A stretch of DNA of 20,659 nt from a virus (Duplodnaviria > Heunggongvirae > Uroviricota > Caudoviricetes). Position 1 is the first letter of the stretch. Every line of letters starts with the position of its first letter. Position numbers and translations under genes: made by a program. Shown in pieces: positions 40 to 19,594 of the stretch. The stretch spans positions 1-20,659 of IMG/VR virus record IMGVR_UViG_2778261527_000010; one strand, 5' to 3'. Under the pieces are notes generated by a model. That model was given only the letters and a program-made list of their open reading frames with translations, made no database searches and was not told where the DNA came from.

Positions 40-402
40 GGGGCTGATTCTGGATTCGACGGGATTTGCGAAACCCAAGGTGCATGCCGAGGGGCGGTTG
101 GCCTCGTAAAAAGCCGCAAAAAATAGTCGCAAACGACGAAAACTACGCTTTAGCAGCTTAATAACCTGCTTAGAGCCCTCTCTCCCTAGCCTCCGCTCTT
201 AGGACGGGGATCAAGAGAGGTCAAACCCAAAAGAGATCGCGTGGAAGCCCTGCCTGGGGTTGAAGCGTTAAAACTTAATCAGGCTAGTTTGTTAGTGGCG
301 TGTCCGTCCGCAGCTGGCAAGCGAATGTAAAGACTGACTAAGCATGTAGTACCGAGGATGTAGGAATTTCGGACGCGGGTTCAACTCCCGCCAGCTCCAC
401 CA
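40..402 (+). ncRNA. ssrA: tmRNA (SsrA), 363 nt
   Basis: Sequence ggggctgattctggattcgacggg...ccagctccacca matches E. coli tmRNA as I recall it; tag reading frame gcaaacgacgaaaactacgctttagcagcttaa (ANDENYALAA*) present; 3' CCA end at 400-402. Confidence 0.95.
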
Positions 403-403: not shown

Positions 404-412
404 ATAAATCAA

Positions 413-444
413 GGGGTTACGTGAAAGCGTAGCCCTTTTTTCTT
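413..444 (+). terminator. rho-independent terminator just downstream of ssrA
   Basis: Stem ggggttacg / cgtagccc (one wobble) with loop tgaaag, followed by tttttcttt. Confidence 0.55.
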
Positions 445-510
445 TGGTAGTGGCGGCAAAACGGCGGCAGGCATTCAGTCAAGCCCAGTTGCTACTACAT
501 GCGATCGCAA

Positions 511-1284
511 TTACAACTTAAAGAGTTTCGCTTGCTCTGGATTAACAGCTTCGACGTAGTTTTTGACCCCTATTCTGTGCGGCTCATAATTGCTTGAATA
601 GAAATCAATCAGGAAGTCACTCATTTTCTGAGATGTGACTTTCATAACTCCCTTACTCAAAGTTAAATTAAACACGCTAATCTTTGACGATGGTGCCTGA
701 GTTTTACTCATGTTGGCTTGATAACCAGATTTACGCATTGCCACTAGTGCTTCGTCGTAAGCCGCTTGTAATTGGGCCAAATCGTTTGACGAGATGATCA
801 CATCATCCATAAACACACTTAGCTTGAGATCATGATGTTTGTTCAATCGGCGTAGTAAGCTACCAAAATAACTTTTATCTAAGCAGAGGGTTGCAAGTAT
901 TGGAGATTGAACAAAACCAAAAGGGAGGACATGCTTATGTGGACTATGGGACAAGTTTCTTACAGTTGAAAATGTTGAGATTTCCCGCGCTTGAGAATAG
1001 GTGAAGTAGCTCTTTAGATCACGGGTGATACGACTACGGCTCGTTGACTGAAAAAATTGTTTAATATCAACAACGGCAAAAAAATCACTTTTTAAGTGTA
1101 ATCTGGCAGCTTTAAGATGCCCACCAGTTCTTAGATGGTAAAAATAGAGTGGCGGAATCCACTTGTTTCTGACAGCCTGAAGTATCTTCCCTCCGACTTT
1201 ACGTGCCTCAACGCTTGGGACATAAACCCAAACCCCGGGCTTAATCTCAAATTTATCTTCCCACCTTTGAACTTCTATTGTCAT
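511..1284 (-). CDS. compact reverse transcriptase (257 aa), palm/finger domains only
   Basis: RT motifs in canonical order: motif A FFAVVDIKQFF, motif B' LPFGFVQSPILATL, motif C SVFMDDVII (F-x-D-D), K-T-containing domain 6; no thumb or effector extension; AT-richer than phage core. Confidence 0.8.
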   Translation of the reverse strand: MTIEVQRWEDKFEIKPGVWVYVPSVEARKVGGKILQAVRNKWIPPLYFYHLRTGGHLKAARLHLKSDFFAVVDIKQFFQSTSRSRITRDLKSYFTYSQAREISTFSTVRNLSHSPHKHVLPFGFVQSPILATLCLDKSYFGSLLRRLNKHHDLKLSVFMDDVIISSNDLAQLQAAYDEALVAMRKSGYQANMSKTQAPSSKISVFNLTLSKGVMKVTSQKMSDFLIDFYSSNYEPHRIGVKNYVEAVNPEQAKLFKL

Positions 1285-1441
1285 GAGTTAAATTGTTGTA
1301 GTTGAAGGCCATGTTAAGAACGGCGTAAACCGCACCAACTAAGCCAACAAACGCGGTTGCGCATTTGAGCATAGCGGTGATCAGTTCAACACGCGCCTTA
1401 ACTAAGCCAAGTTCGTTTGTATCCATAACTTGTTCCTCCAT
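1253..1441 (-). CDS. small predicted single-pass membrane protein (62 aa from ATG 1441; 57 aa from ATG 1426), 3' end overlaps the RT start by 32 nt
   Basis: Hydrophobic segment LITAMLKCATAFVGLVGAVYAVLNMAF; GGAGGA 7 nt upstream of the second ATG (1426); overlap suggests translational coupling with the RT. Confidence 0.5.
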   Translation of the reverse strand: MEEQVMDTNELGLVKARVELITAMLKCATAFVGLVGAVYAVLNMAFNYNNLTHDNRSSKVGR

Positions 1442-1687
1442 AGATACCTGACGTCTCTTAGCGCAAGCGCATGGCCCTAACTAAATAAAAAATAACAACC
1501 AGTTAGCCCAGAAAGCTTAACAAGTCGGCGTCCAATTACATGGCAATCAGGTAATCGGTCCGCAGTCGCAAAGCGACAAACTACATATCTACGGAGTGGG
1601 GATAAATCCCCGCTAACGTCAGGCATTGTTAATTTAACCTCAACTTATAGAAAAGTATAGTTTTAAATCATGTAGTTATGTCGCCAT
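1442..1687 (-). ncRNA. candidate structured noncoding RNA / leader upstream of the RT module (hypothetical, retron msr-msd-like)
   Basis: No ORF; perfect hairpins ggggataaatcccc (1598-1611), gtcgcaaagcgac (1565-1577), gcgcaagcgc (1461-1470); 8-bp inverted repeat cctgacgt/acgtcagg (1616-1623 vs 1447-1454) with TAGC + G-rich hairpin right after the upstream arm on the minus strand. Confidence 0.25.
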
Positions 1688-1906
1688 TTAAATCGGCAAA
1701 CCCACCTGTTTAAATTTATGAGGATGCGGCTGAACCGGATTTGACTCTTTTGGCGTTGCAATCGAACGAACAAAAGTTTCATGGGTAACAAAAGTATGGC
1801 TGCAGTTAATGTTCTGGCACTGGTTGTAACGCTCTTTGGTCAATGAAGATACCTGAAAACTGCTGCGAGTATGGGCGGCACTTCCACACAGTGGGCAAAT
1901 CATCAT
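1688..1906 (-). CDS. ogr: Ogr/Delta-family zinc-finger late-gene transcription activator (72 aa)
   Basis: MMICPLCGSAAHTRSS...YNQCQNINCSHTF with C-x2-C...C-x4-C spacing as in P2 Ogr; GGGGAGA RBS 9 nt before ATG at 1906; lies immediately after gene D as in P2. Confidence 0.85.
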   Translation of the reverse strand: MMICPLCGSAAHTRSSFQVSSLTKERYNQCQNINCSHTFVTHETFVRSIATPKESNPVQPHPHKFKQVGLPI

Positions 1907-1996
1907 TTTTCGAGTTCTCCCCATTTTTGCTAAATGCACAATAATGATATCGCATTATTCCATTTTTCAAACTTAAAAGTTCTCCATTGTGAAGAA

Positions 1997-3097
1997 TCAT
2001 TCCATTTCGAGATCATCAACCTTCACTTCAAGCTCAAGACTGGTCGTAAAACCGTTATCCGGGCTGACGGTATGTGTCAGGGTGGTAATGGTCCATTCCG
2101 CATCATCTATCGGCTGTTTAAAGCCACTGACTTTCACTGGCATTTCCGTGTAGAGATCTGCCCGCCCTTCCGCCAGTTGTAGCGAGAATGCCGCAACACC
2201 GCGTTGCAGACGTTCCCACTGCATTTTCGCCGCTCGTTCGGCGTTGCTCCGGTTGGCATAAGTGCGATTAAGTACCAGCACGTTTTCATCCGTACCCACC
2301 AGGTAATCGCCCTGCTTCGCTTCCGGCTCTTTCTTCTGCTTCTTAGTCCTGCGCTTACGCTTCACCATGGTGCTTTCTTTCTTCGCGGGTTCGCGGGTAT
2401 GCAACCAGCTGGCAATTACGCCCGTATAGGCTCCGCGATCTGCCAGGGTAAAGCGGTGACTGTCGCCGTCCTTACGCGTGATAGTGATCACCGGCAGTGG
2501 TTTACCGCTGGCGCTTTTGCCCTGTCCCTGCCGGATGAATAACAGATTGCCATTTTTCACCGACGCAATAGCACCGTACTGGCGCGCCAGCCGCATCAAA
2601 AAACTACCGTCACTCTCATTAGTCTGGTCTATATGCTCCACGGGCTTATCCGACAGGTCTTTACCCAGTGCCATCTTCAGCTTGTGACGTACGGCTATTT
2701 CCTTCACCACTTCCCCGACAGTGGTCTTGTGCCACGATTTTTCGCGGCGGGTATTCAGCGTTTCCCGAAAATCAGCACTTCGCGCCCGGATAGTCAGGCG
2801 GTCCGGTGCGCCAGTGTGTTCAATCTCGTCCACCGTGAATGCCCCTTTCGGGAAAAGCGGCTGCCCCTTCCACCCCAGCGCCAGCGTAATGACCGCACCA
2901 CGGCGCGGCAGCACTATTTTTCCGTCGGCGTCGTCCAGCTCCAGATCAAGCTGGTCTGCTTCAAAGCCCCGATTGTCCGTCAGCGTCAGACTCATCAGGC
3001 GGTTATCCAGCACAGTGGTGATATCCTTCCCCTCAATACTGATGCTGAATGCGGGAGTTTTGTTTCCTTTGTTAAGCAGTTCAGAGCTGAAATTCAC
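1997..3097 (-). CDS. D: P2 gpD-like tail protein (late control gene D)
   Basis: 366-aa translation matches gpD along its length (LTLTDNRGFEADQLDLEL, TIRARSADFRETLNTRRE, VKVSGFK, NGFTTSLELEV); ATGA overlap with the upstream U gene. Confidence 0.9.
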   Translation of the reverse strand: MNFSSELLNKGNKTPAFSISIEGKDITTVLDNRLMSLTLTDNRGFEADQLDLELDDADGKIVLPRRGAVITLALGWKGQPLFPKGAFTVDEIEHTGAPDRLTIRARSADFRETLNTRREKSWHKTTVGEVVKEIAVRHKLKMALGKDLSDKPVEHIDQTNESDGSFLMRLARQYGAIASVKNGNLLFIRQGQGKSASGKPLPVITITRKDGDSHRFTLADRGAYTGVIASWLHTREPAKKESTMVKRKRRTKKQKKEPEAKQGDYLVGTDENVLVLNRTYANRSNAERAAKMQWERLQRGVAAFSLQLAEGRADLYTEMPVKVSGFKQPIDDAEWTITTLTHTVSPDNGFTTSLELEVKVDDLEME

Positions 3098-3579
3098 GAC
3101 AGCAGCCCTCCCACCGTTTTACTGATATCGCTTAAGGCAGACGTTGTCGTATCCTGCAAATTATTCAGCTGCGCACTGAGATCACCGAACATATCGGACA
3201 GGGATTCATCCACCCGTTTGAGCGACAGGGTGAACTCAATCCGGCGCGGCATACCATCGCGGAAAAACTCCGTTTTAGTCTGATTCAGTCCCTCAATCAC
3301 ATACATGCCGTAAATCGTGCCGCTGCCTTCAATCAGGGGCCATGCTTTTCCCTGTTCTGCCATCTGCTCCAGAGCCAGCAACGACAGCCTGCCGCCCGTT
3401 ATCTCCGGCATAAGAACACCAGAAAGCGTCAGCATGTCGTTGTCTGGTCCCAGAAACTGCGTGGACGGACGTCGATTGACCCGGCTGTTTGCCGCATGTC
3501 GCCAGCTGCGTTGATACTGCAGTTCCTGATACGGCACAGTGCGCAGCATAAACACGTACAATCCCAGCACCATCATCAT
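3094..3579 (-). CDS. U: P2 gpU-like tail protein
   Basis: 161 aa, MMMVLGLYVFMLRTVPYQELQYQRSWRHA... matches gpU; overlapping start/stop with T fragment and D. Confidence 0.85.
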   Translation of the reverse strand: MMMVLGLYVFMLRTVPYQELQYQRSWRHAANSRVNRRPSTQFLGPDNDMLTLSGVLMPEITGGRLSLLALEQMAEQGKAWPLIEGSGTIYGMYVIEGLNQTKTEFFRDGMPRRIEFTLSLKRVDESLSDMFGDLSAQLNNLQDTTTSALSDISKTVGGLLS

Positions 3580-3995
3580 GCTTCGTATCCCCCCTGATCG
3601 CTGTAGTTACTCCTGGCTTTTGCCTTCAGCCTGCGTTCACGTTCATCAAGCTGGCGGGCCACCTCCCGCGCAATATCCTGCGCACTTTGTCCTGGCTGCG
3701 TCTGAATGATGATCTGCATCGGTGCCTCAATCCGTTGAACGGGCGGCACAGTGGCTGCACGACTCACCATCGCTTCGCCGCCTTTCGCGGGAAGTGCCAA
3801 AGAATGCAACGGTGGAAGCTCTGCAGGCGCGGCAGCAACGCCCATCATTCCGGCAACAACGGCAGCCAGTGCAGCTGTATTTCTCCGGCTGGTCACATTT
3901 GCCGGGCCGTTAACAATTTCCGGCCCGTTTTCACCGACGATGCCAAACTGCCCGCGCGGGATATAGCCGCCGCTGTCATACATCCCCGCAAAGCC
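3576..3995 (-). pseudogene. T: 3' fragment (~135 codons) of tail tape-measure gene (gpT-like); 5' part deleted
   Basis: C-terminal tape-measure-like sequence (GYGFAGMYDSGGYIPRGQFGIVGENGPE...) ending in-frame before U; reading frame runs into unrelated portal-gene sequence at ~3984-4003. Confidence 0.7.
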
Positions 3996-4003
3996 ATATC
4001 CCC

Positions 4004-4399
4004 ATGACCGATGCTGCGCAGAACCAGGAGGATGTGAACAACCTCCGCAATGCGATGAAAAGCGCCAAAGGTCCTGGTAACTTCCGTAACCTGTTTATGT
4101 ACTCGCCTAACGGTAAAAAGGACGGGCTTCAGATTATCCCGTTGTCAGAAGTGGCGGCGAAGGATGAGTTCCTGAATATCAAGAACGTGAGCCGGGACGA
4201 CATGATGGCGGCGCATCGTGTGCCGCCACAAATGATGGGGATAATGCCTAATAATGTCGGGGGGTTTGGGGATATCGAAAAGGCAAGCACAGTATTTGTA
4301 CGAAATGAGCTACTGCCTCTACAAAAAATGTTTCTAGAAATAAATAATTGGTTAAACGATAGAATTATAAATTTTTCAACCTACGAACTAAAAATTTAA
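4004..4399 (+). pseudogene. Q: 3' fragment of portal gene (gpQ-like); 5' part deleted
   Basis: Translation ...FRNLFMYSPNGKKDGLQIIPLSEVAAKDEFLNIKNVSRDDMMAAHRVPPQMMGIMPNNVGGFGDIEKA... resembles P2-family portal C-terminus; opposite strand to tail genes as in P2; last ~25 codons are AT-rich. Confidence 0.6.
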
Positions 4400-4415
4400 T
4401 TAAGATAATTTAGTC

Positions 4416-4433
4416 GGCCTCATTTCTGAGGCC
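4416..4433. terminator. bidirectional hairpin between convergent portal fragment and lmuB-like gene
   Basis: Perfect stem ggcctca / tgaggcc with 4-nt loop, flanked by A/T-rich sequence. Confidence 0.45.
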
Positions 4434-4439
4434 ATATTT

Positions 4440-6098
4440 TCATCTTGAAAGTATCACCCGTTCAAACAATGGCATTAATTGAGAATAAACATTATCATAA
4501 TGTTCATCATTTAAAAGATGATATTTATTTTCAAGTTTGATGCTATTAAAACCATCCATGAAACTCTCATAACCAACAGTTCCAATAATAATCTGATTTG
4601 TAAGGGAAAACCCATCCAAGCATAGTTTTATAAGCTTATGCGTATGCTCTGGATCCAAATCTTGTTGCTTTGGAGAGTCTATTACTATAGGCATATTCTC
4701 AACTGAAGAGTTGCTTTTCATAACACTAAGCAGCGCGTAGTGAAATGCAAATATACCTCGAGGACCTCGACTACCAGTCTTACCCTTAGTAATATTATTA
4801 TAACTACTAAGGCCACCTACCTTTGTATTTTCGACACCAAGCTCTTTAAGAGCTTTAGCGAAATACTCTTTGAAACAGTCATTTATTTTAACAGTTCTTT
4901 TCTTATCATTGTATACTTCTAATTCTTCTTGTAATTCTGTCAACTCGCCTTCTTTTCGACCAATCTCAACGAATAACTCATCTAACTGTGAAATAAAAGT
5001 AGATTCAATTTCATGGTATGCGGCAGATTTAATAACATCATGAAGCGTTATTTCCGATTGAGTTTCTAAAATCAGCGCCTGCAACGCCTCTGAAGCAGCC
5101 CTTGACTCTTCTAGCTTTTGATTCAATTTAGGAATATTTTCCTCAATCTTGCTTTTCTCATCTGCAAGAACAGCAATGTTTTTGAGCATTTCATCTCTAT
5201 GGTTTATATAATTATATTCATTTACTGAATAAGCAACATTATCATCTCGAAAATTCGAAATCTCAAATTCATTATCAATAATCGCAGTTATCTCTTTGAG
5301 TTCACTCTCAAGGAAATTCTTCCTAGAATATAACCTCAAAAGATTCAATCTATATTCTGTCTGAACTAAATTTAAATTAGAATATTCATTTAATATACGT
5401 TCCAACTTTGATTTATAAAAATCCAAATCAACATCAAATAAAACCACGCCAAAAGATTCATCAATCTTACTTTTGCTTCTTTTTAGAACCTTAACAAAAC
5501 CATCTAACTCTGAAATTTTAACTTTAATTTCTTTGATTTTCCCTTGAACTGTATAATATTCCTTTGGCTTAATTCCAGAGTGATAGTAAAGAATGTTTTT
5601 TTGCCATTCTGAGTACATACTCATGTTTTCGAAAGAATTTATCACCGCTTTCCATCCTTCATCCTGATCAATAAAGAATGGGGCAAACAAACAAGCAGGG
5701 TTTGCCTGAGTCGTAGCACCCGTATATTTATTATGTAATTCCAGTTTAAAACCAAATATATTTGAAACACGAGATGCTAATGACGAAATCGTGTTATACA
5801 CGACTAGATCATCATTCTTCAAATCAAAGACACCAATAATCTTTTTATAACGCAAAAAAATAAAATCATTTTCCCCGTTATTAATTTCCACCAGTGTAAC
5901 TATATCATCTGATTTCCAAGCATCATCAAGCCTTAAATCTCCACCTAATGTGTAATAAAGACTTTTAATCAGGCTTGATTTACCAACATCATTTGTACCA
6001 TATATGAAGTTAACCCCTTCTGAAAACTCATAAGAAAAAGCTTTTCTGTCTCTTAATGAGAGTATTTTTATATTTTTAAATTTAACGTTATTCTTCAT
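4440..6098 (-). CDS. SMC-like ABC ATPase, LmuB-like (DUF3732-type) component of a Lamassu-like defence system
   Basis: N-terminal Walker A GTNDVGKSS, long coiled-coil middle (E/K/L-rich), C-terminal IVIDSPKQQ resembling the D-Q-P Walker-B variant of LmuB; GAGGA RBS before ATG 6098; 11-nt overlap with upstream gene; AT-rich. Confidence 0.6.
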   Translation of the reverse strand: MKNNVKFKNIKILSLRDRKAFSYEFSEGVNFIYGTNDVGKSSLIKSLYYTLGGDLRLDDAWKSDDIVTLVEINNGENDFIFLRYKKIIGVFDLKNDDLVVYNTISSLASRVSNIFGFKLELHNKYTGATTQANPACLFAPFFIDQDEGWKAVINSFENMSMYSEWQKNILYYHSGIKPKEYYTVQGKIKEIKVKISELDGFVKVLKRSKSKIDESFGVVLFDVDLDFYKSKLERILNEYSNLNLVQTEYRLNLLRLYSRKNFLESELKEITAIIDNEFEISNFRDDNVAYSVNEYNYINHRDEMLKNIAVLADEKSKIEENIPKLNQKLEESRAASEALQALILETQSEITLHDVIKSAAYHEIESTFISQLDELFVEIGRKEGELTELQEELEVYNDKKRTVKINDCFKEYFAKALKELGVENTKVGGLSSYNNITKGKTGSRGPRGIFAFHYALLSVMKSNSSVENMPIVIDSPKQQDLDPEHTHKLIKLCLDGFSLTNQIIIGTVGYESFMDGFNSIKLENKYHLLNDEHYDNVYSQLMPLFERVILSR

Positions 6099-7167
6099 AA
6101 GAAACATCCTCAAAAGTCAACTTTATAATTGCATATATAGCAATCATAAATTTCTCTTCTTGATTTAATAAAGAGAAATCCCCGTCCCCCGCTGCAATTG
6201 TTTTTTCGAGTGTAAAGAAGAGGTCTCGAACAGGTATCTCACGATAATGCTCTATACTCTTTAGAGCCGATTGAAATTCCAGAAAATAAAGATAGTATAT
6301 TGAATTGACATTGAGCACTTTTATTGATATGCGTGTAAAAACTGATTGTAATTTAATCCCCTCATAAGGATCTGAGAAAGTACCAAGCAACATACAAACC
6401 TGTTCCCATTTTGGCGTTATTTTTATGCTTGCAATGAGTCCAGATAATAAATCAGTTACAAATTCTGAAGATATACCTTTCTTTAGTACTAAATCTTCAA
6501 AAGTTTTGATATCACTAGAAGCAACACTAACCTTCTCATTACACTTATTGATTAATAATTTAGTGAATGCTGTTGAATTAATACCATGATCATCCCCAAA
6601 GTAAGAATTCAAAAAAACTGCAACTTTCCCGTATAAATGTGAGTTAGGATCTAACAAACTAAGATCAGATGTTTTAAATTTTATTTTATCAAGAGGAACT
6701 TCTTTTTTAGTATTTAGCTGCTCTTGAACCTTACTAATTATAATTTCCTTATGCTCATTATTAAGATCACTACCTTTTTCGTTATTATCATTTAAGAAAT
6801 CGAATCCAGCATTCGATAACAGAACCATATAAATTTCGTGACCAACGAATTGATAGAAATGGTCATATAGTTTTGCAACAAATGATTTAGGTTTAGCTTT
6901 TGTTGCGTTCACTATTGCTGCGAGTGTCCATTTACCATCTTTTTTTGTTTTAACTTGGATAAACTCAGCACTAGTCGGAGAAACAGATGAATTCAATACA
7001 AGAATATCGTCATGATATTCAAATAGAAATAAATATTTCTCCTTTTCTTTTTGTTTCTCAAGTAAATAATTTATCCCCCAAGAGGCTTGATATGAAAAGC
7101 CTCTCAACGCGTTTTCACCGCCCCGTTCGGCTTGATTTACTGTAATTAACGCATCTGATAACGCCAC
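6088..7167 (-). CDS. LmuA-like effector with N-terminal Cap4/DUF4297-type PD-(D/E)xK-like nuclease region
   Basis: N-terminus GFSYQASWGINYLLE...EYHDDILVLN...FIQVKTKK resembles the DUF4297 D...QxK core; GTG start, in-frame stop two codons upstream; AT-rich; sits at the P2 old/tin position. Confidence 0.5.
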   Translation of the reverse strand: MALSDALITVNQAERGGENALRGFSYQASWGINYLLEKQKEKEKYLFLFEYHDDILVLNSSVSPTSAEFIQVKTKKDGKWTLAAIVNATKAKPKSFVAKLYDHFYQFVGHEIYMVLLSNAGFDFLNDNNEKGSDLNNEHKEIIISKVQEQLNTKKEVPLDKIKFKTSDLSLLDPNSHLYGKVAVFLNSYFGDDHGINSTAFTKLLINKCNEKVSVASSDIKTFEDLVLKKGISSEFVTDLLSGLIASIKITPKWEQVCMLLGTFSDPYEGIKLQSVFTRISIKVLNVNSIYYLYFLEFQSALKSIEHYREIPVRDLFFTLEKTIAAGDGDFSLLNQEEKFMIAIYAIIKLTFEDVSYEE

Positions 7168-7310
7168 TCTATATATCCCTATTGTACTGCTTTTTTTTGA
7201 TACAAATTACCTTAGCTTCACCATCAAGTCCACAGATTCATGGCTAAGCGCGCGCTCGTATCCCCGCCACGCCTGCCCGCTTTATGTAGTGGTTTTCATG
7301 CACCTGCATG

Positions 7311-7342
7311 ATCTACGCAAAAGCCCACCAGTTCTGGCGGGC
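7311..7342 (-). terminator. rho-independent terminator after the tum/DinI-like operon
   Basis: Minus-strand stem gcccgccag / ctggtgggc (one mismatch) followed by ttttgcg. Confidence 0.45.
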
Positions 7343-7477
7343 CTTAGCAAAAACGATCCTCAAACGATCATGCGATCTCATGCGGCATAGACATGCACTA
7401 CAGAGCTAACGCCTCGCAAGGGCTCGTTGTTCAACCTTGCTGACGCCAGAAACAAGTTCAGACGCCAGCAACGTTTC

Positions 7478-7711
7478 TTAATGCAGCCAGCTGTCGTCTT
7501 CCCACACCTTCTGCATAATTTTCATCACTTGCTTCCTTTCTTCGTCCAGTTGCAGTCCGGTCAGTTCCACACCGTTAGAGCTACCTTTGCGGATACGAAT
7601 TACCGTTTTGGGATACAGGGGGTGCAGATTACGGTAAAGCTCGGATTCAAGGGCGTCCAGGGTCGACTGGCTAATCTTCTGCTCTTTATCGATCATTATT
7701 TCAATGCGCAT
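7478..7711 (-). CDS. DinI-family protein (186 Tum C-terminal-domain-like)
   Basis: MRIEIMIDK...LDALESEL...IRIRKGSSNGVELTGL...KQVMKIMQKVWEDDSW parallels E. coli DinI; AGGTGA RBS 6 nt before ATG 7711. Confidence 0.75.
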   Translation of the reverse strand: MRIEIMIDKEQKISQSTLDALESELYRNLHPLYPKTVIRIRKGSSNGVELTGLQLDEERKQVMKIMQKVWEDDSWLH

Positions 7712-7721
7712 AAAAGTCACC

Positions 7722-7910
7722 TCAGCTGATGACATCCATTGAGCGGTTGTATTCGTGGCTTCTGATTTTTGCCATGAGTTCATCAGTCAATTCAGAAACC
7801 CACTGCAGAGCCAGTCCCTTCTCTTCATCACTACACTCACTGGCCGCTACAAGCTTAAGAAAAAAATCAATGCGCTGGAGCTTCAAAGACTCCAAAAAAT
7901 AGTCCTGCAT
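7722..7910 (-). CDS. small protein (62 aa), first gene of the LexA-controlled operon; possibly the N-terminal part of a split tum
   Basis: AGGAGG RBS 4 nt before ATG 7910; ends 10 nt before the DinI-like start; a frame open upstream of the DinI start overlaps it. Confidence 0.5.
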   Translation of the reverse strand: MQDYFLESLKLQRIDFFLKLVAASECSDEEKGLALQWVSELTDELMAKIRSHEYNRSMDVIS

Positions 7911-7951
7911 CTTTCCTCCTATGACACCACACGCAATACTGTATGTATAAC

Positions 7952-7971
7952 CACTGTTTATAATTACAGTA
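7952..7971. promoter_or_regulatory. LexA (SOS) box upstream of the tum-like operon
   Basis: cACTGTttataattACAGta: perfect CTGT-N8-ACAG with AT-rich spacer; a second half-match (tactgtatgtataacc) lies adjacent at 7937-7953. Confidence 0.7.
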
Positions 7972-8063
7972 TATAATAATATTACTGATGTAAAACGTTT
8001 TTTTACGTTTATCAGCCTGATATGCCTGGTATTATTAAGAGCACGAATGGTTAACCATCGTAA

Positions 8064-10478
8064 TTAATACAGGTTTCGCCACTTATCATCTTCCTGCAAA
8101 CGCTGGTTCCGATAGAAGATACGCAGGCCTGCTCCTGACGGAATACTGCCGCCGCGAAGGAGTAAATCGACCTCTTTCTCGCTACCATCAAACCCTCTGG
8201 ACTTCAGCTCATACTCGAGCTGCTGTCGCTGATGGTCTGTAATTCGCTGTTTGTAGTCTTTACGCCGTTTCGGTTTAACCAGGTGTAACCTTGCTGCCAG
8301 TTCCCGGCGTTCTTTTTTGCTCATACTGTGCAGGTAATCGTGCAACTCCTTGTCATCCATGCGGGTGATATCCGTTCTGGTATCCCCATCAGCTGATTTG
8401 TCTTTCCCTTGTTGGTTCAAATTTTCAGCAAGGGGACAGTTATTGCCACGAGTCCAAGGGGCGCAAGCGCCCTGGTCGGCTGCCGCCTCCTGAACGTCAA
8501 CGGCTTTACGAACCATTTTCCACTTCACTGCATGAGTGCAGATCTTGCCCTCTGCAATGGGTGACCAGATGCCATAAATACGAATGCCGTGATCGCCATA
8601 GGCGGTCGGCTCTTCGTTGATTTCATAAGCGGTTCTGATGAGGTGATATTTACGGGGAACCAGTACGCCGCCCTGCTTCATGATGTAGGTGGCAAAACAA
8701 CCAGCATCAGCAGCAGCCAGGATGGCATCAAGGCGCGGGTTATCCAGTACCGGCGCACCTGCTTTTTTGTCCCCCTGTTGCCTTGCCGCCTGACCAGCCA
8801 GCAATCGCAGTTCACGGTAAGCCTGACGCCCCGGAATGCCAAAGAAGCGGAATTGCTGAACACGATGCAAAGACGCCCAGGCATTCACGTATTCAGCGTT
8901 ATCACGCAGAGATTTACCCGTTTCCTTGCTGATCTCGCCAGCCAGACCACGCCCGTCAATGTTCTTACTGATGTATTTCGCTATGTAGCTTGTCGGCGTT
9001 CCTTTGCGCGGGTTAATCAGCTCAGACTTAAAGCGCGGCCCCGTGTTATTGCCCAGCTCCTCGCGGTCTTCACGGATAGCAAACTTACGCAACAATGCAG
9101 TAATGGCTCGGCGGTCTTTTTTGCGCATGAAACACAACAGGTGCCAGTGAACTGTGCCGTCGTGATGCGGCTCAGCCACCCGCACGCCATACCAGCGCAA
9201 CCCGGCTTTGTGCATCGCCTTACGAAATGCAGCAAACATACCGACCAGATAATCGCTGCTTTGTCTTACCGTCGCATTTGTCCAGGTCGGGTTGGGCCTG
9301 CCGTTATTTAGCGTGGAATGGAAACGTGACGGACAGGTGATGGTGTAGAAAACGGCGCAGTCACCGCGCATTTCCGCGATAAGCTCCAGACCTTTAACAC
9401 AGGCCATCATCTCATTGCGGCGATGCGCAGGGTTGCTGCTGCTGGCGTTTACCACATCCTCCATGTCCAGCGTGTCGCCGTCTTCGTTCACCAGTTCATG
9501 AGAACGGAAAAACTCCAGCGACTTACGGCGCTGCTCACGTTTATGCAACACGGCTTCATAGCTGACATAGGGAGATGCTTTTTTGCTGACAAGGCAGACA
9601 GCACGCAACTGCTCTTCCCGCCATTCGCAACGCATCTTCCATAATTTCCGATACCACCAGTCGGCGCACAACATACGCGCCAGCGAACCCGGAATGAGTT
9701 CATAGGGCACGGGTTTACGGCGGTTTCTTTTCCGACGGAGTTGCTCAAACGCAGGCGGGATGACATCCAGACGCAGGGTTTCCGCTGCCACCCTTTCCCA
9801 TGTCTTGCGGATTTCTTCTGGCTTAACGTCATCGGTGGCATACAAATCGCCACAAGCGGCATCAAGGCACATACTCATATGCGCAGCTACCAGGGTGGAC
9901 AGGCGTTTCACCTGATCCTGACTCATTTCAGGCAGGATCAGCAGGCCGTCCAGCCCTTCATGGCTTGCCATAAAGCGAAAAGATGCAGATAGCTGACTGT
10001 CGCGTACATGCTCCAGTCGTTCCAGACATGGCTTAATCGTCTCACGTAAATAGCGGGAATAAGCCTTTGGCCTGCCCAGGCTGCTGAAGTATTCAATACG
10101 TTGCATCAGCGGCTTGCTGATATGGGAAGGCTGGGCGTTGACGTCCGCCAGAATGACCATATCCGGATTAAAACACTGCTGCTCATGCGCCAGCTTTGCC
10201 CGACTAATGAGCTTATCCTGTTCCATTTCGCGCTGGACAGGATCACGGGATTCATTAAAGAAATAACGCTCCCAGACCTGATCACTCAGCGCCTCACGGC
10301 GCAGCTGTTCCTGCTCGTTATCGGCAGCGTACAGAGTGATCAGGTTTGAAAGCGTAGAAACCGGCGCAACTTCCGCCGGGTCCAGATAAGGGTTAATGGC
10401 CTTTTTCGGGCTGTTCCATGAGAACGATGCGGCAGCTTCGTTAAAGCCGCAGCAGTTGTTCATATCGGCATGACTCAT
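8064..10478 (-). CDS. A: P2 gpA-like rolling-circle replication initiator endonuclease (804 aa)
   Basis: Active-site tyrosine motif [13 protein letters not shown] and metal-binding [15 protein letters not shown] as in P2 A; ATGA overlap with upstream dam-like gene. Confidence 0.9.
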
Positions 10479-11332
10479 GCACGTACTCCGTACACGGCAG
10501 AACTATCCACGCCACGCGAATAATCAAATCCCACCCAGCAGCGCGGCCCAGAAACAGCAATGATTTCTGTTGCTGATTTACCCTCGCCAGCTGCCACACC
10601 GATGCTGCGTTTTGCCTTGATGTAGTGGTGAGTAAAATTGCGATACAGCGAACGGATCAGGGATGTGTCACTGTTAGAAACAATGACCGGATGTCCTTCT
10701 GATGACCGATGTTCAAGAACAGATGCCAGGTGATACTGGTCATCTTCAGTGAAGCCGTCAGTGTGATAGCCGGAAAACGTACCGTCATACGGCGGATCGC
10801 AATACACCACATCCCCCGCCTTCAACATCGCCAGCGTTTCATCAAAGCTGGCGCAGATAAACGTTGCTCGCTGGGCCTTTTCTGCAAATGCGCGAATTTC
10901 TTTTTCAGGGAAATACGGATTTTTATAATTACCGTAGGGAATGTTGAAATGCCCGCTCTTGTTATAGCGACATAAACCACGGTAACCGTGACGATTGAGA
11001 TACAGGAAATATACCGCTTTCATGAAATCAGTAATTTCAGTTGAGTAATTAAACTCCTGCCTTATGTTGTAATAAGCCACCTCCCTGTTTGCGATCTCAA
11101 ATAAAACTCTGGCGCGAGATATAAACGATTCACAATCAGCGGCAACCTTTTTATAGAGGTTGATTAAATCAGGATTAATATCCGCAACCAGATAGCTGGG
11201 ATAATCCGTCTCCATCATCACAGCACAGGAACCCGCGAAAGGTTCAACCAGTCGCGGGCCAGCAGGAAGATGTTTTTTCAGTTCGGACATTATGGCAGTT
11301 TTATTTCCCGCCCATTTCAGGATGGTGCTCAT
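10475..11332 (-). CDS. Dam-like N6-adenine DNA methyltransferase (285 aa)
   Basis: ILKWAGNK and [10 protein letters not shown] (AdoMet-binding), DPPY catalytic motif; GGAGGT RBS 5 nt before ATG 11332; ATGA overlaps with both neighbours. Confidence 0.8.
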
Positions 11333-11556
11333 ACAGCACCTCCGTTGTAATGTTTGCCTTTCAGCTCTGCGATTTCCTGACAGGTAATGCAAAGCTGCAC
11401 ACCCGGAATGGCACGGCGGCGTGCTGGCGGAATTGGCGCTTCACACTCAATGCAAAGCACGCGTGACACGCCCGGTGTTTTGGCACGGGCTGCACGGATA
11501 TGGCGCTGGCGTTCTTCTTCAACGCGCTGCTGTACGAGATCCATTGCATCAGCCAT
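11329..11556 (-). CDS. TraR/DksA-family C4 zinc-finger protein
   Basis: C-x2-C...C-x2-C (CIECEAPIPPARRRAIPGVQLCITCQ); start overlaps stop of upstream ORF (TAATG). Confidence 0.7.
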   Translation of the reverse strand: MADAMDLVQQRVEEERQRHIRAARAKTPGVSRVLCIECEAPIPPARRRAIPGVQLCITCQEIAELKGKHYNGGAV

Positions 11557-11789
11557 TAGTGGATCTCCTGCGCTTCGTTCTGGATTGCTTCAGCAGTCAC
11601 ACGCAGCAGTTCTGCTGCTTCGACGTGGTTTAGCTGGCAGATTGTGATATGACACGCTAGGCTATCAAGGCGGGCAGCCATTGCCTCAGCCCTTGCCCGG
11701 CGTTCTTCCAGACGAGCCTCTGTCAGTAAAATATTAAGCCCTGCGTCATCCGGTCTGGTTTTGGTCGAGAGGGTTTCAATATTACGCAT
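11556..11789 (-). CDS. hypothetical phage early protein (77 aa)
   Basis: AGGAGA RBS 7 nt upstream of ATG 11789; coupled to the TraR-like gene. Confidence 0.45.
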   Translation of the reverse strand: MRNIETLSTKTRPDDAGLNILLTEARLEERRARAEAMAARLDSLACHITICQLNHVEAAELLRVTAEAIQNEAQEIH

Positions 11790-11856
11790 AATCAATTCTC
11801 CTGAATTTAGATAAAGGGATGCACGGCGGGTTTACGCCATTAATTTCATTAGTTGC

Positions 11857-12198
11857 TTAATTCGGCATGGTTAGCCGTCTGGGAAATAAGCTCACCACTG
11901 CACGAAAATGATTCATTGCTTTAATCAACTCCCGCTTTTCGTCAGTGGTCAGCTCATTAATGCTGATGCTATGACGTTCAGCTGGAATTTTTGCCATAAA
12001 GAATATGGCAGCCAGTGCCCGTTTATTTTGTTCATTATTGATATCCCGTGGATCACGCATATCTTTAATAAACCGCTCAAGCTCTGACTCAATATTCAAA
12101 CCAAAAACTTTCGCCCTTAACTCCGCAATATGATTAAGTCCATTCAGGCGTTCACCGGGTCTTAATGGAACAGTCGCCGCAGCGCCTTCAATAGCCAT
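11857..12198 (-). CDS. hypothetical phage early protein (113 aa)
   Basis: GGGGGA RBS 6 nt before ATG 12198; in the 186 fil/dhr-equivalent position. Confidence 0.5.
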   Translation of the reverse strand: MAIEGAAATVPLRPGERLNGLNHIAELRAKVFGLNIESELERFIKDMRDPRDINNEQNKRALAAIFFMAKIPAERHSISINELTTDEKRELIKAMNHFRAVVSLFPRRLTMPN

Positions 12199-12362
12199 TT
12201 GTTCCCCCGTTTTTTCGTAGATAGTTCTGCCAGCAATTCATCTTGTGAACGGCACGGATGCCAGCGTTTACCATCCTCACCCATGATCCAGCCGTGACCG
12301 TAGTGCATTGCCGGACTTTGTTTTACCAGCAGCGATGCAAATGATGGTTCTTTCGTCAGCAT
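12162..12362 (-). CDS. hypothetical small protein (66 aa)
   Basis: AGGTG RBS before ATG 12362; 37-nt overlap with the downstream gene. Confidence 0.35.
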   Translation of the reverse strand: MLTKEPSFASLLVKQSPAMHYGHGWIMGEDGKRWHPCRSQDELLAELSTKKRGNKWLLKALRRLFH

Positions 12363-12369
12363 AAGCACC

Positions 12370-12879
12370 TCACAGCAAACCGAATGAAGCACCGAGGCCA
12401 GTTACAGTATCAACTGCACTTGCCATCGCAGGATTAACCTGTAAACGGGCCTGCAATGAAACAGCAGCTAACGCCATCAGTCGTGTAACAGAGTTAATGC
12501 TGCTGATAGCATCACGACGACCTGCACTGGTTTTTACATCGCCAGATACCGCACCTGCAGCAACACGCCCGATCTCTGCGGTTGCACTCATGACGTAATG
12601 TGGCAGTTTCTCTTTTGCCACCTCATTAATCGGTACACATGGCAGGCAGTGAATCTGTGCCAGAAAACCGTCTACCAGCGTTGAATCTTCCGTCAGATCG
12701 GTAAGTAGCCAGATATCTGGCGCATTGAGCTGATGCGGTTGATCTGGGTTGAGTTTGTTTCGCAGAGTCTGGACATTCATTCCTGCACGTTCTGCCAGCT
12801 TCGCCATATTGTGACGAAGTGCAAAAGCTCTACAGGCTTCATCAAAATGCGGGTGTTTGGAAATCTTATAATCAAACAT
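12370..12879 (-). CDS. cII: phage 186 CII-like transcriptional activator (169 aa)
   Basis: MFDYKISKHPHFDEACRAFALRHNMAKLAERAGMNVQTLRNKLNPDQPHQ... HTH protein matching 186 CII in length and sequence as I recall it. Confidence 0.85.
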   Translation of the reverse strand: MFDYKISKHPHFDEACRAFALRHNMAKLAERAGMNVQTLRNKLNPDQPHQLNAPDIWLLTDLTEDSTLVDGFLAQIHCLPCVPINEVAKEKLPHYVMSATAEIGRVAAGAVSGDVKTSAGRRDAISSINSVTRLMALAAVSLQARLQVNPAMASAVDTVTGLGASFGLL

Positions 12880-12911
12880 GCTACCCCCTTAGAAAGTTCT
12901 CATAATTGAAC

Positions 12912-13154
12912 TTACTTACCAACAATGACGCGGAAGTTGGAATGACCGAGGGATTCACGGACCTGATCGGTTTTGTACATTAAATAACGCAGGCTTACGC
13001 GGCCTTTGTTTTTTTCTTTCTTGACCATGTATTTAGCAAGCTGACCATGGTGAATTTTTTGATACACAGAGCCGCGGGAGATACCTTCCCATTCCGCGAA
13101 CTCTGCAGGCGTAGCCATCTCTTTTGGTACACGAATTGAAATATCAGTGCTCAT
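12912..13154 (-). CDS. apl: Apl/Cox-like small HTH excisionase/regulator (80 aa)
   Basis: First gene of the lytic operon, divergent from cI; HTH-like EFAEWEGISRGSVYQKIHHGQL; GGGAGA RBS. Confidence 0.6.
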   Translation of the reverse strand: MSTDISIRVPKEMATPAEFAEWEGISRGSVYQKIHHGQLAKYMVKKEKNKGRVSLRYLMYKTDQVRESLGHSNFRVIVGK

Positions 13155-13210
13155 AGTGCAGTATCTCCCGATTAAGGTTTGGTTTACGTCGTTTTATCTC
13201 GTTTTACTTG

Positions 13211-13259
13211 ATTCAATATTTGATACATCGAGATACTACGATCCAATATTTGATACGTC
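13211..13259. repeat. two direct repeats (caatatttgatac, 13214-13226 and 13244-13256; 17/19 identity when extended) in the immunity switch region; candidate operator sites
   Basis: Identical 13-mers 30 bp apart; one lies between -35 and -10 of the lytic promoter, the other just downstream of its predicted start. Confidence 0.45.
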
Positions 13260-13261
13260 AA
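13233..13261 (-). promoter_or_regulatory. pR-like lytic promoter for apl-cII operon
   Basis: Minus strand TTGACG-17 nt-TAGTAT; correctly placed upstream of apl. Confidence 0.55.
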
Positions 13262-13273
13262 CAGGATTAAAAA

Positions 13274-13907: not shown

Positions 13908-14924
13908 ATGACCATCAGAAAACAGCCGAACGGAAAATGGTTGTGTGAGTGCTATCCCAATGGACGCAATGGCAAGCGCGTGCGTAAGCAATTTGCCACG
14001 AAAGGCGAAGCCATTGCGTTTGAAAGCTTCACAATGGAAGAAGTGAATAAAAAACCGTGGTTGGGTGAAAAGGATGATCGGCGACGCCTATCAGAATTAA
14101 TTGAGCTTTGGTATTCCCTGTATGGTCAGACACTCGCAGACCCCAAGCGCCTCATGGCGAAACTTAGAATTATCTGTAATGGCCTAGGCGACCCCATCGC
14201 CTCAGAACTGACAGCCGGAGACTTTACGAAATACCGCGAAGCACGGTTAAAAGGTGAAATACGAAATGAAGATGGCACGCTTATGTCGCCCGTTAAGCCC
14301 CGCACGGTAAACCTTGAACAACGCAATCTATCATCGGTGTTCGGTACATTAAAAAAACTAGGACACTGGTCAGCACCAAACCCGCTGGCAGGACTTCCGA
14401 CCTTCAAAATTGCCGAAGGTGAGCTGGCTTTTCTTTCCACGGACGAAATCAAGCGCCTGTTGGCGGCATGTGCTGAATCTCAAAGCCCTAGCTTACTAAT
14501 GATTGCAAAAATATGCCTAGCTACTGGCGCACGGTGGAGTGAAGCAGAAAATTTGCAGGGCCATCAGTTATCCAAATACCGCATCACTTATACCAAGACG
14601 AAGGGCAAGAAAAACCGTACCGTGCCAATATCTCAGGATCTGTACAACGAACTTCCTAAAAATCGAGGGAAGTTATTCTCACCATGCAGAAAAGCCTTTG
14701 AGCGTGCAGTAAAGCGGGCCGATATTGAGCTTCCTGAGGGTCAATGCACCCATGTATTACGTCATACATTCGCCAGCCATTTTATGATGAACGGAGGAAA
14801 CATACTTGTGCTTAAAGAAATTTTAGGCCATGCCGATATAAAAATGACCATGATTTATGCGCACTTTTCTCCAGATCATCTGGAGGATGCGGTAACTAAA
14901 AATCCTTTAAACTATATAGAGTGA
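13908..14924 (+). CDS. int: tyrosine integrase, P2/186 family (338 aa)
   Basis: Catalytic-region motifs ATGARWSEA, HVLRHTFASHF, LGHADIKMTMIYAHF; adjacent to attR. Confidence 0.9.
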   Translation: MTIRKQPNGKWLCECYPNGRNGKRVRKQFATKGEAIAFESFTMEEVNKKPWLGEKDDRRRLSELIELWYSLYGQTLADPKRLMAKLRIICNGLGDPIASELTAGDFTKYREARLKGEIRNEDGTLMSPVKPRTVNLEQRNLSSVFGTLKKLGHWSAPNPLAGLPTFKIAEGELAFLSTDEIKRLLAACAESQSPSLLMIAKICLATGARWSEAENLQGHQLSKYRITYTKTKGKKNRTVPISQDLYNELPKNRGKLFSPCRKAFERAVKRADIELPEGQCTHVLRHTFASHFMMNGGNILVLKEILGHADIKMTMIYAHFSPDHLEDAVTKNPLNYIE

Positions 14925-17799: not shown

Positions 17800-19233
17800 T
17801 CAAGGCTGCCCAGTCTTACCAGCATCAGCAGAAACAGCTTTGAGGATATAGGGTTCCAGAAGTCTGGCAACAGCTTCAAATACTGGCACCACAACTGAGT
17901 TACCGAACTGCCGATATGACTGAGTATCTGAAACCGGAATACGGAATGGTTTCCCTCCAGGTTTTTCAAATCCCATAAGGCGTGCGCACTCTCGGGGAGT
18001 CAGCCTGCGTGGTCGACGAGCCTGATTACTCTCATTCATAAAGTCAGCCTCTCCCGTTGCCATATCCCAACCACGATCAATAAGAATTTCTGATCCGTCT
18101 TTGTGATATCTGGCAGAAAGTGTGCGTGCAATGCTTTCCTTATTCTCAGGATTGACCAACCCAAAGCCAAAACCATTCCCCTTGGCTGCATGCTTTTTGG
18201 CGTAGTTATAAAGGTACTCCCATAGTTTTGGCGTAAGTATATATTTACTGTCGACTACAGGCTCCAGCAATTCACCAAATGATGGGCGGTGTTCCGGATA
18301 AAAACGACTGATATCACGCAAGGTAAACCCCTTGTGAATATTCAGATCTCGTCTAAATCCGACCAGAACAATACGTTCACGATGCTGAGGCAAAAAATGC
18401 TTCCCATCGATAATCTTTGGATCGTTTTTTCCCATTTCTGCAGCATCGGCAACTTCGTAGCCCAGCTCGTCAAGGGTCTCCATAATGACTTTGAAAGTTT
18501 TACCCTTATCATGGCTCTTCAGATTTTTGACATTTTCCAGCACAAAAATTGCCGGTTTTTTTGCTCGTATAATACGTGCCACGTCAAAAAAAAGTGTTCC
18601 TTGTGCTTCACATTCAAAACCATGCGCACGACCAAGTGAGTTTTTCTTACTAACACCAGCAAGGCTAAATGGCTGGCACGGGAACCCCGCAAGAAGCACA
18701 TCATGATCCGGCACATGCTCATCAATATATGCATAAGCATCCGTTTCCAATACATCGGTTTTATCACTCAGCGTGACTTCCCGAATATCGAGATTGAATT
18801 TATGCACCTGTTCATCGTTAAACCAGTTGGCCTTGTATGTACGCACAGCATCTTTATTCCATTCACTGGTAAAAACACACTGGCCTCCAATGGCCTCAAA
18901 ACCTTTCCGTATCCCTCCAATTCCAGCAAATAAGTCAATGAAGCGGAAAGCATATTCCGGATGGTTTGCAGGTGGTTCTGGTAGCATCTTACGCAGAAGA
19001 GACTCTTCTACTGAAGTCAACGATTTTGGTAAACACTTGCCATTAATCCAGCGGTTAATGGTTTCACGGCTCCACTCATTTTTTCCGACTTTTCTCAGTA
19101 ATTCAGCCACATACTTCTGATCATAGATTTCCAGCACTTTCTCGATAAGCTTTTTATCATTTTCCTGTCGCAGCTTTTCTTCCGCCTCGGCTTCCTTCAG
19201 CAGATGCTGTGCCAACACTTCAAATTCAGACAT
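17800..19233 (-). CDS. DNA (cytosine-5) methyltransferase, M.EcoRII/Dcm-like (477 aa)
   Basis: C5-MTase motifs [36 protein letters not shown]; collinear with M.EcoRII as I recall it; GGAGG RBS 5 nt before ATG 19233 (ORF track start at 19275 is probably too long). Confidence 0.9.
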
Positions 19234-19594
19234 AATTCCTCCAAGGGGTCTAATGGGTGAAACTTTATCACTCATTCAACCCAGAAGGAAATGTTTTATC
19301 TGGATATTTAAACAGTGACTACAACGTAATCTAGCACTGGTGATGCTTTGTTAGGCATAGAGAATCATTCTATATACGACTAATGACAGAAAAACAGCAG
19401 ACAAGTAGTTTGTTCATAAATTAACGCATACTATGTGTCTACGGTTTTCGAGACCGGTCCAATCATCAAACGAAACATAAAATTAGCTCACATTATGAGG
19501 AAAAGTATCTTTTTTGTACTATGTAAATTCAAAGGCTTAGCCTCATTTCTCCGATGGTTTTCTCAACACTACTGGTTGTGAGCCCTTGCAATGA

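Follow-up and report, generated by a model that had tools for sequence, protein, structure and literature searches.

In this study we describe a pair of genes, lmuA and lmuB, from a stretch of viral DNA of 20,659 nucleotides (nt) assigned to Caudoviricetes (IMG/VR record IMGVR_UViG_2778261527_000010). This whole stretch is further referred to as the window. With high probability, the pair is a complete type I Lamassu defence system with a Cap4-type effector, horizontally acquired as cargo of the P2/186-like hotspot and residing in a decayed carrier. The membership of the two proteins in Lamassu is secure. The transfer of the published mechanism to this pair is weaker, because the proteins are only about 15–20% identical to the solved Bacillus ones. 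The two-gene system is not new: it is a standard type I Lamassu, recognised end to end by existing defence-annotation models.

The product of the upstream gene matches the PADLOC-DB model of LmuA, PDLC00243, with an expectation (E) value of 4e-143 and a score of 475 bits; residues 1–356 of 359 are aligned with profile positions 1–360 of 361. The Pfam family PF14130 (Cap4_nuclease) covers residues ~15–212 with 117.3 bits (cut-off 26.2). The protein has an N-terminal Cap4-type PD-(D/E)xK domain (~15–212) and a helical C-terminal domain (CTD, ~174–354). Its GFSYQ motif is found at residue 23, EYHDD at 50 and QVK at 71. The columns invariant in an alignment of 14 homologues, down to 21% identity, include E14, G17, Q27, H52, D53, D54, I55 and F69, as well as Q71, V72, K73, T74 and K75. 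Judging by these residues, the active site is probably the D...Q-x-K version of the PD-(D/E)xK site. In published work the nuclease lysine was mutated as K59A or K57A in LmuA from Bacillus cellulasensis (BcLmuA) and as K57A in LmuA from Vibrio cholerae (VcLmuA).

The AlphaFold2 model of LmuA (mean predicted local distance difference test score, pLDDT, 86.2) consists of an alpha/beta N-terminal domain followed by a nine-helix CTD. Its best Foldseek match in PDB is 9ux7_C, which is LmuA of the type I LmuAB–DNA complex (E 7.9e-7, 352 aligned columns, template modelling scores 0.51/0.59). The next matches are HamA, VcLmuA (9nxx), Cap4 receptors (6wan, 6vm5, 6vm6) and Salmonella LmuA (9hqx_A); the Cap4 structures align with the N-terminal domain over about 250 columns. 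A single-sequence phmmer search of LmuA against PDB sequences returned nothing even at E <= 10. The profile built from 14 sequences reached HamA (8zue) at 7.9e-4, through the shared DDI...QVK nuclease core. The search of PHROGs with LmuA gave no match, and NCBIfam has no specific model for either LmuA or LmuB.

The product of the downstream gene is identified by the PADLOC-DB LmuB model PDLC00255 (8.6e-254, 841 bits, profile positions 2–549 of 550). Many further PADLOC models of LmuA and LmuB match the two proteins below the top ones. The Walker A motif GTNDVGKS occupies residues 34–41 (lysine K40), the signature-region GSRGPR stands at 442 and IVIDSPKQQ at 471–479. Invariant among 30 homologues (down to 22% identity) are N36, G39, K40 and S41 in Walker A; D144 and Q145; G442, P446 and R447 in the signature region; and P470, V472, I473, D474, S475 and P476 around Walker B, plus D482. 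The Walker B motif is deviant: D474 is followed by the serine S475 and not by glutamate, in alignment with LmuB from B. cellulasensis (BcLmuB; PIVIDS vs PFCMDS). A naturally deviant Walker B was reported for both BcLmuB and V. cholerae LmuB, VcLmuB (10.1101/2025.06.23.660979).

The 30-sequence LmuB profile retrieved from PDB the 562-amino acid (aa) chain 9ux7_A/9ux8, annotated as 'Lamassu protein LmuB', with E 3.6e-45 over positions 8–546. The score of BcLmuB was 158 bits vs 19.9 bits for type II LmuB; the type II protein from Salmonella (9hqu_A, 660 aa, annotated as 'DUF3732 domain-containing protein') had E 0.0025, and Rad50 heads, E of about 1e-6. Single-sequence phmmer against PDB sequences found no Lamassu chain for LmuB, only Rad50 N-terminal lobes. 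In the AlphaFold2 model (pLDDT 84.5) the N- and C-terminal head lobes flank helices ~179–419, so that the predicted coiled coil is real but short. There is no CxxC motif in the LmuB sequence and therefore no zinc hook. The best Foldseek match of the model is again the type I complex (9ux7_A, 3.2e-24), followed by type II LmuB (9uxh_F, 9hqu_A, 9hqx_B, 9nyg_B) and then by SMC, Rad50 and SbcC; the top six comprise five Lamassu LmuB chains and the YydD-YydB model 9a6c. Matches to the Pfam families SMC_N, AAA_23 and AAA_15 are sub-threshold. NCBIfam gives weak matches to an archaeal SMC-related protein, SMC, Rad50 and RecF, and the PHROGs family is phrog_29295 of 'unknown function'.

An initial annotation, made from the sequence, had assigned the upstream protein to LmuA with a DUF4297/Cap4 fold and the downstream one to LmuB, and both assignments agree with the profile and structure matches above. 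The motifs quoted there (GTNDVGKS, IVIDSPKQQ, GFSYQ, EYHDD and QVK) are all present at the given residues. The LmuB coiled coil was predicted correctly as such, its length was not: it had been described as long.

According to two reports (10.1101/2022.05.11.491447, 10.1101/2025.06.23.660979), the original Lamassu (Doron 2018) is the two-gene lmuA–lmuB system, now called type I, and systems with lmuC are type II. LmuC is encoded by most Lamassu systems (10.1101/2022.05.11.491447, PMC12663957). Haudiquet et al. placed the Bacillus type I system in 'clade S' and hypothesised the loss of LmuC (PMC12663957). In the window lmuA and lmuB overlap, hence there is no room for lmuC between them. The 310 nt 5' of lmuA contain a cos-like site and open reading frames (ORFs) of 21–33 aa only. 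Candidates for LmuC were sought among the small ORFs within the operon, antisense to it and in the spacer 5' of it, and all were rejected: no PADLOC LmuC model matched any flanking, spacer, internal or antisense ORF, and none of these ORFs matched any PADLOC model.

In four distant homologous loci a Cap4_nuclease gene of ~360 aa lies directly 5' of an ATPase gene of ~550 aa, and no other gene is shared. Here, too, the two genes abut or overlap. Together with the copy in Escherichia coli 47-1826, lmuA is adjacent to and upstream of lmuB in five loci from different genera; the identity of LmuB across the four homologous cassettes is 26–72%. Their contexts are listed in Table 1. The Serratia locus was read, from its neighbouring genes, as a probable P4-like satellite. 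The module moves between very different mobile elements. The claim that no LmuC-like third gene is present is thus borne out by the gene overlap, the flanking ORFs, the PADLOC searches and the four homologous loci. The description of the pair as a short two-gene variant was a misreading, given that lmuA–lmuB is the original type I Lamassu with solved structures (PDB 9ux7/9ux8).

Both genes are intact minus-strand ORFs with an overlap of 11 nt (ATGAAGAATAA), counted from the ATG at 6098, and a guanine-cytosine (GC) content of 32.1%; the annotation of two overlapping AT-rich genes thereby stands. The GC content is 48.5% in the early region (7500–14900) and 55.3% in the tail genes (1997–4000). 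At the composition of the operon a stop is expected at approximately every 12 codons, and the chance of an open frame is ~2e-14 for 359 codons and ~7e-22 for 552 codons. By the longest-ORF rule the downstream ORF would span 4440..6113 (TTG start, 557 aa). The real start of lmuB is almost certainly the ATG at 6098, yielding a 552-aa product, because a GAGGA Shine-Dalgarno sequence stands 8 nt 5' of it, the alignment with the PADLOC LmuB profile starts at residue 8 of the 557-aa form, and RefSeq gives the 1659-nt gene and the 552-aa form in E. coli 47-1826. The boundaries of both genes annotated by RefSeq in that genome are identical to ours. The overlap is the usual signature of translational coupling, which is therefore implied.

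The gap between lmuB and the converging portal fragment is 40 nt long and contains a GC-rich hairpin (Table 1). It is probably a bidirectional terminator closing the operon; its use on the minus strand is suggested by its symmetry and position. P2 has its terminator tQ in the corresponding position behind Q. On the other side of the operon, the hexamer TACAAT (7186–7181) was considered as a −10 element and rejected: its distance to the GTG start downstream is only 13 nt, and the ribosome-binding site would be lost.

On the minus strand the order of genes is integrase/CI, early genes, gpA, a 62-aa gene, a DinI-like gene, cos, lmuA and lmuB, followed by the converging portal gene. The cos-like site was recognised by comparison with P2: positions 7305–7261 match the cosR flank and the start of the cohesive end (37/45 identical, E 9e-8), and positions 7273–7247 match the cohesive end and the left flank (21/27 identical). 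Since this site separates the DinI/tum-like gene from lmuA, the cargo and the portal gene are on the same side of cos. The P2 genes tin/old are located between orf91 and cosR, that is, on the gpA side, and there is only tQ between cosL and Q. Hence, of the old/tin position claimed in the initial annotation, the gpA–portal hotspot holds, the same side of cos as tin/old does not, and the 'portal gene' is only a C-terminal fragment. A gpA–gpQ defence hotspot 'near the cos site' has been described for P2-like phages (PMC13586616; Rousset 2022 cited there). The hotspot carriage found here fits the published hotspot models, and the hotspot is already known to hold such systems. As a side observation, in a packaged linear genome the Lamassu operon would lie at the portal-proximal end, cut off from the upstream early operon, because cos separates the DinI/tum-like gene from lmuA.

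A 3-kilobase (kb) query was compared with 5426 complete E. coli genomes. The cargo is present, at 99.4–99.9% identity, in 10 of the 1250 genomes that match the query at all. The other ~1240 records share, among the matches listed, only ~65 nt at the cos edge (query 2933–3001, that is, window 7232–7300). The cassette was also found in 12 records of Klebsiella P2-like phages at 99.7% identity. LmuA does not differ from its copy in the intact prophage of E. coli 47-1826, and LmuB differs from its copy there by one substitution (N536D). Based on these comparisons, the cassette appears to be mobile, swappable cargo in a variable slot.

The alignment of window positions 4003–14909 with the intact 186/P2-like prophage in E. 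coli 47-1826 has 97.1% identity. Of the portal gene only 131 aa are left, fused to a tape-measure fragment, therefore the prophage is defective. Beyond the tape-measure fragment lie gpU, gpD and ogr (1939..1688); the head and lysis genes have all been lost, as have most of the tail genes, with the deletion junction at about 4003. Many E. coli genomes, APEC O78 and ACN001 among them, have a similar tape-measure/portal (T'/Q') junction but other cargo in the hotspot, and none of the 5426 genomes has both the cassette and this junction. The ends of the element are marked by a 46-nt direct repeat of the ssrA 3' end (358–403 and 16279–16324, 98% identical), and the prophage extends over window positions 404–16324.

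Table 1. Features of the lmuA–lmuB locus and its carrier (window coordinates), and homologous cassettes (coordinates in the respective loci)
Feature	Coordinates	Strand	Remarks
lmuA, effector gene	6088..7167	minus	359 aa, GTG start
lmuB, SMC/Rad50-like ABC ATPase gene	4440..6098	minus	552 aa, ATG at 6098
lmuA/lmuB junction	6088..6111	minus	GAGGA 6111-6107 within the end of lmuA; ATG 6098; lmuA TAA 6090-6088
GC-rich hairpin GGCCTCA-TTTC-TGAGGCC	4416..4433	none	terminator-like scan match on the plus strand
cos-like site	7247..7305	minus	between DinI/tum-like gene and lmuA; right-hand boundary of variable cargo
DinI-family (tum-like) gene	7783..7478	minus	
62-aa gene			conserved phage family phrog_698; adjoins DinI-like gene, between gpA and cos
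Replication endonuclease gpA gene	10478..8064	minus	
Portal C-terminal fragment	4004..4399		131 aa; converges on lmuB
Tape-measure C-terminal fragment	3983..3576		last 135 codons; joined to portal fragment at about 4003
ssrA (tmRNA gene)	40-402		Rfam 295.8 bits; integration at the 3' end
Locus L004, one of the four cassettes below	3929-6659		
Locus L007, one of the four cassettes below	3931-6662		
Locus L005, one of the four cassettes below	3916-6650		
Locus L009, one of the four cassettes below	3871-6728		
Homologous cassette, Cronobacter			lambdoid prophage, between lambda-P-like and Q-antiterminator genes
Homologous cassette, V. cholerae			non-phage chromosomal site
Homologous cassette, Serratia			beside primase-type gene (Zn_Ribbon_Prim/Toprim_3/DUF927) and Ogr/Delta gene
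Homologous cassette, Elizabethkingia			two genes only shared

The proposed mechanism follows the published studies of the B. cellulasensis complex (BcLmuAB). In this complex an asymmetric LmuB dimer binds one LmuA monomer via the LmuA CTD and the distal coiled coils. Its ATPase activity is moderate and is lost on Walker A mutation. It binds the end of double-stranded DNA (dsDNA) directly; linear dsDNA stimulates its nuclease activity, and ATP tunes it. After addition of DNA and ATP/Mg, the LmuA tetramer and LmuB–DNA particles were observed apart. BcLmuAB guards E. coli against phage T1, and this protection is weakened by mutations of the catalytic lysine and of the interface (all 10.1101/2025.06.23.660979). 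In type II systems the logic is the same with LmuC as an extra bridging subunit, and abortive infection was shown (10.1101/2022.05.11.491447, PMC12663957).

By analogy, in the pair studied here LmuB would bind ATP via K40, and an asymmetric LmuB dimer would keep one LmuA monomer inactive by sequestering it on the coiled coils. In the course of infection free dsDNA ends or aberrant products of replication would be bound by the LmuB heads under the control of ATP. LmuA would then be released and tetramerise through its helical CTD, and the paired Cap4 domains (D53/D54, Q71, K73) would cut DNA non-specifically, so that the infected cell would be killed or arrested before phage progeny form (abortive infection). 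All these steps are likely by homology with the systems studied in the work on BcLmuAB and on the V. cholerae complex (VcLmuACB). Abortive infection that depends on the LmuB ATPase and the LmuA nuclease, with an LmuB2:LmuA1 complex as the sensor of DNA ends, is known for these two systems alone.

Several observations weigh against the assignment of the pair to a working type I system or limit what can be transferred to it. In structural alignments the identity to the solved Bacillus proteins is ~15% for LmuA and ~20% for LmuB. The 14-sequence LmuA profile did not reach BcLmuA and VcLmuA in PDB; therefore the link to BcLmuA rests on structure prediction and the Foldseek comparison, and the transfer of interfaces at the level of residues is unsafe. 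The Pfam model DUF3732, suggested for LmuB in the initial annotation, gave no match at E <= 0.1. No consensus sigma-70 site was found by the promoter scan between cos and lmuA. The scan yielded 12 promoter-like sites overall, below the shuffle expectation of 14.3, and thus says nothing about the promoter. AT-rich defence loci of E. coli are reported to be silenced by H-NS, and the Lamassu of ECOR28, to be H-NS-compacted and upregulated on hns deletion (10.64898/2026.09.05.749240); by the same token, the AT-rich cassette in its defective carrier could be H-NS-silenced. Searching the literature for the RefSeq accessions, or for work on an E. coli type I Lamassu, brought up nothing specific.

Given these observations, one may suppose that the pair is a genuine Lamassu by descent that is inactive here, being H-NS-repressed, promoterless or drifting cargo in a dead remnant. 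The loss of everything from the portal N-terminus through most of the tape measure, the result of the promoter scan and the GC content of 32%, typical of H-NS targets such as the compacted ECOR28 locus, agree with this. However, both ORFs are intact with all predicted catalytic residues kept, the proteins are near-identical to the copies in the intact prophage of E. coli 47-1826, and defence pseudogenes were reported to be rare in P2/P4 hotspots (PMC13586616). Moreover, silencing bears on the regulation of the system and not on its identity. We consider inactivity unlikely. A slightly smaller chance is given to the possibility that the main role of the pair is competition between elements (plasmids, satellites, rival prophages) and not abortive infection of lytic phages. 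The targets of type II DdmABC include both plasmids and phages, and palindromic DNA triggers it (10.1101/2025.06.23.660979, 10.1101/2022.05.11.491447), and the cassette is carried by P2-like phages, a lambdoid prophage and a P4-like satellite-type locus. On the other hand, the characterised type I BcLmuAB protects E. coli against phage T1 (10.1101/2025.06.23.660979); the targets cannot be told apart from sequence, and the two roles differ in emphasis within one mechanism. It is similarly improbable that the gammaproteobacterial LmuAB differs mechanistically from the Bacillus complex, to which it is only 15–20% identical: for instance, the LmuA CTD might, in another geometry, bridge DNA and the coiled coils in place of LmuC. 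Equally speculative is that the frequent carriage by P2-like phages might be tolerated via the scarcity of DNA ends. P2 replicates by a gpA-capped rolling circle and is packaged from circular monomers, which would leave few free DNA ends for a DNA-end sensor. If true, the replication mode of the carrier phage would be a determinant of the defence cargo it can bear.

The remaining explanations concern the class of the system and are much weaker. Most Lamassu systems have LmuC, and the diverse LmuC families are difficult to recognise from sequence, so a small, divergent or displaced LmuC of a type II system might have been overlooked. This is very improbable, as there is no room between the genes, and the flanks are taken by cos, the 21–33-aa ORFs, the DinI-like gene, the phrog_698 gene and the portal fragment. 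Neighbouring and internal ORFs do not match PADLOC LmuC models, the four distant loci in unrelated contexts share just the two genes, and in the profile search LmuB is much nearer to BcLmuB of type I than to the LmuB of type II systems. Hardly credible is the membership of the pair in another ATPase–nuclease family (Gabija, Septu, PARIS or OLD-type), or of LmuA among the effectors HamA of Hachiman or Cap4 of CBASS. P-loop matches of LmuB to GajA (4e-5), AbiLi and HEC-02A (E 1e-4 to 1e-6) and AriA (0.004) do exist, and HamA models match LmuA residues ~5–97 at 4.7e-11, in line with the PDB match 8zue. These matches, however, are local and 100–240 orders of magnitude weaker than the full-length Lamassu matches. 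Neither Pfam nor NCBIfam shows a helicase (HamB), SAVED, CD-NTase, Toprim or OLD domain. The partner of LmuA is an SMC-like ATPase and not a helicase as in Hachiman; there is no cyclase in the neighbourhood as expected for CBASS, and LmuA matches Cap4 by the nuclease domain only. The similarity to HamA and Cap4 reflects the shared nuclease fold, already known for LmuA. Another ATPase–nuclease family or the lack of the nuclease fold had been named as outcomes contradicting the Lamassu assignment; instead, profiles, structure prediction and context all give Lamassu, with GajA and AriA as weak P-loop matches only.

The current RefSeq names of the proteins are 'hypothetical protein' or 'AAA family ATPase' and 'dsDNA nuclease domain-containing protein'; these may safely be replaced by LmuB and LmuA of a type I Lamassu. 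The finding is of little importance beyond annotation. The locus offers a clean case from nature of a 2.8-kb defence module that shuttles nearly unchanged between P2-like phages of E. coli and Klebsiella. Lambdoid prophages and a P4-like satellite-type locus harbour more diverged versions of the module, and it persists after the decay of the carrier. The observations that are informative, if only mildly, are the position on the portal side of cos, the near-identity between E. coli and Klebsiella with diverged copies elsewhere, and the survival of the module in a gutted prophage. A type I Lamassu from Enterobacteria would also be a convenient native-host model, given that the LmuC-less form has so far been studied only as a Bacillus system expressed in E. 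coli.

Several other features were noted in the window. Between ssrA/attL and ogr there is a reverse-transcriptase ORF (511–1284, minus strand, 257 aa, 40–43% GC; Pfam RVT_1, 77 bits). It matches retron reverse-transcriptase models weakly (PADLOC RT_VI, 63 bits; NCBIfam retron_St85, 49.8 bits at a cut-off of 235), and the Rfam scan found no retron RNA with it. This ORF may encode a truncated or unclassified defence-type reverse transcriptase at the ogr–att end. Directly after the integrase gene (13908..14924) and inside the att repeat lies a 411-aa ORF (14929–16164, plus strand, 32–35% GC), in what is a minor 'integrase–att' cargo slot of P2-like phages. Its single match is phrog_7835 (unknown function, 474 bits); a Pfam RES domain match is sub-threshold (E 0.068, residues 136–191), and PADLOC and NCBIfam searches gave no match. 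Possibly it is an uncharacterised toxin or defence gene. Just outside the prophage, at 16552–19275, a 247-aa ORF for an EcoRII-N-type restriction endonuclease and a 491-aa ORF for a C5 cytosine methylase (19275..17800) face each other. The endonuclease ORF covers positions 1–243 of the 365-position PADLOC REase_II model and therefore is probably truncated; the two genes look like a decayed EcoRII/Dcm-like restriction-modification pair. An Rfam match to the IS009 RNA (20526–20659, minus strand, 157.5 bits) runs into the end of the window.

Among known systems, the closest one is the type I LmuAB of B. cellulasensis NIO-1130 (9ux7/9ux8). It has the same order of genes, lmuA and then lmuB, without lmuC; its LmuA consists of a Cap4 domain and a helical CTD, and its LmuB has ~550–560 aa, a short coiled coil, a canonical Walker A and a Walker B aspartate without the glutamate. 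The lineage differs (Firmicutes vs Gammaproteobacteria here), as does the carriage in a P2-like prophage hotspot observed here. The contacts between the CTD and the coiled coil may differ as well, given that the LmuA profile missed BcLmuA. Type II systems, namely V. cholerae DdmABC/VcLmuACB (9nxx, 9nyg, 9uxh) and Salmonella enterica LmuACB (9hqu, 9hqx), belong to the same family with the same Cap4 effector class. They probably share with the pair studied here the logic of a sequestered LmuA monomer, DNA-end sensing and an active tetramer, and the Walker A lysine of type II LmuB is also numbered K40. In contrast, they need the middle gene lmuC, whose product contacts DNA, the LmuA CTD and both LmuB coiled coils, and which has no counterpart here. 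Type II LmuB is longer by ~100 aa (653–660 aa), with the weaker sequence match to 9hqu_A given above.

With P2 old/tin the cassette shares the role of non-essential AT-rich anti-phage cargo between the A region and Q, near cos, which is swapped between conserved backbones. P2 Old, an OLD-family ATPase–Toprim nuclease, and Tin are not homologous to the cassette proteins, and old/tin lie between orf91 and cosR, whereas the cassette lies between cos and Q and is transcribed towards Q. Finally, LmuB resembles Rad50/SbcC and SMC in its split ABC head and antiparallel coiled coil, and the Rad50 N-terminal lobes were its sole non-Lamassu sequence matches in PDB searches. It differs from these proteins by a far shorter coiled coil, no CxxC zinc hook and no Mre11/SbcD partner. 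The output is repair in their case and would be effector release in the case of LmuB; SbcCD has been proposed as the origin of Lamassu (PMC12663957).

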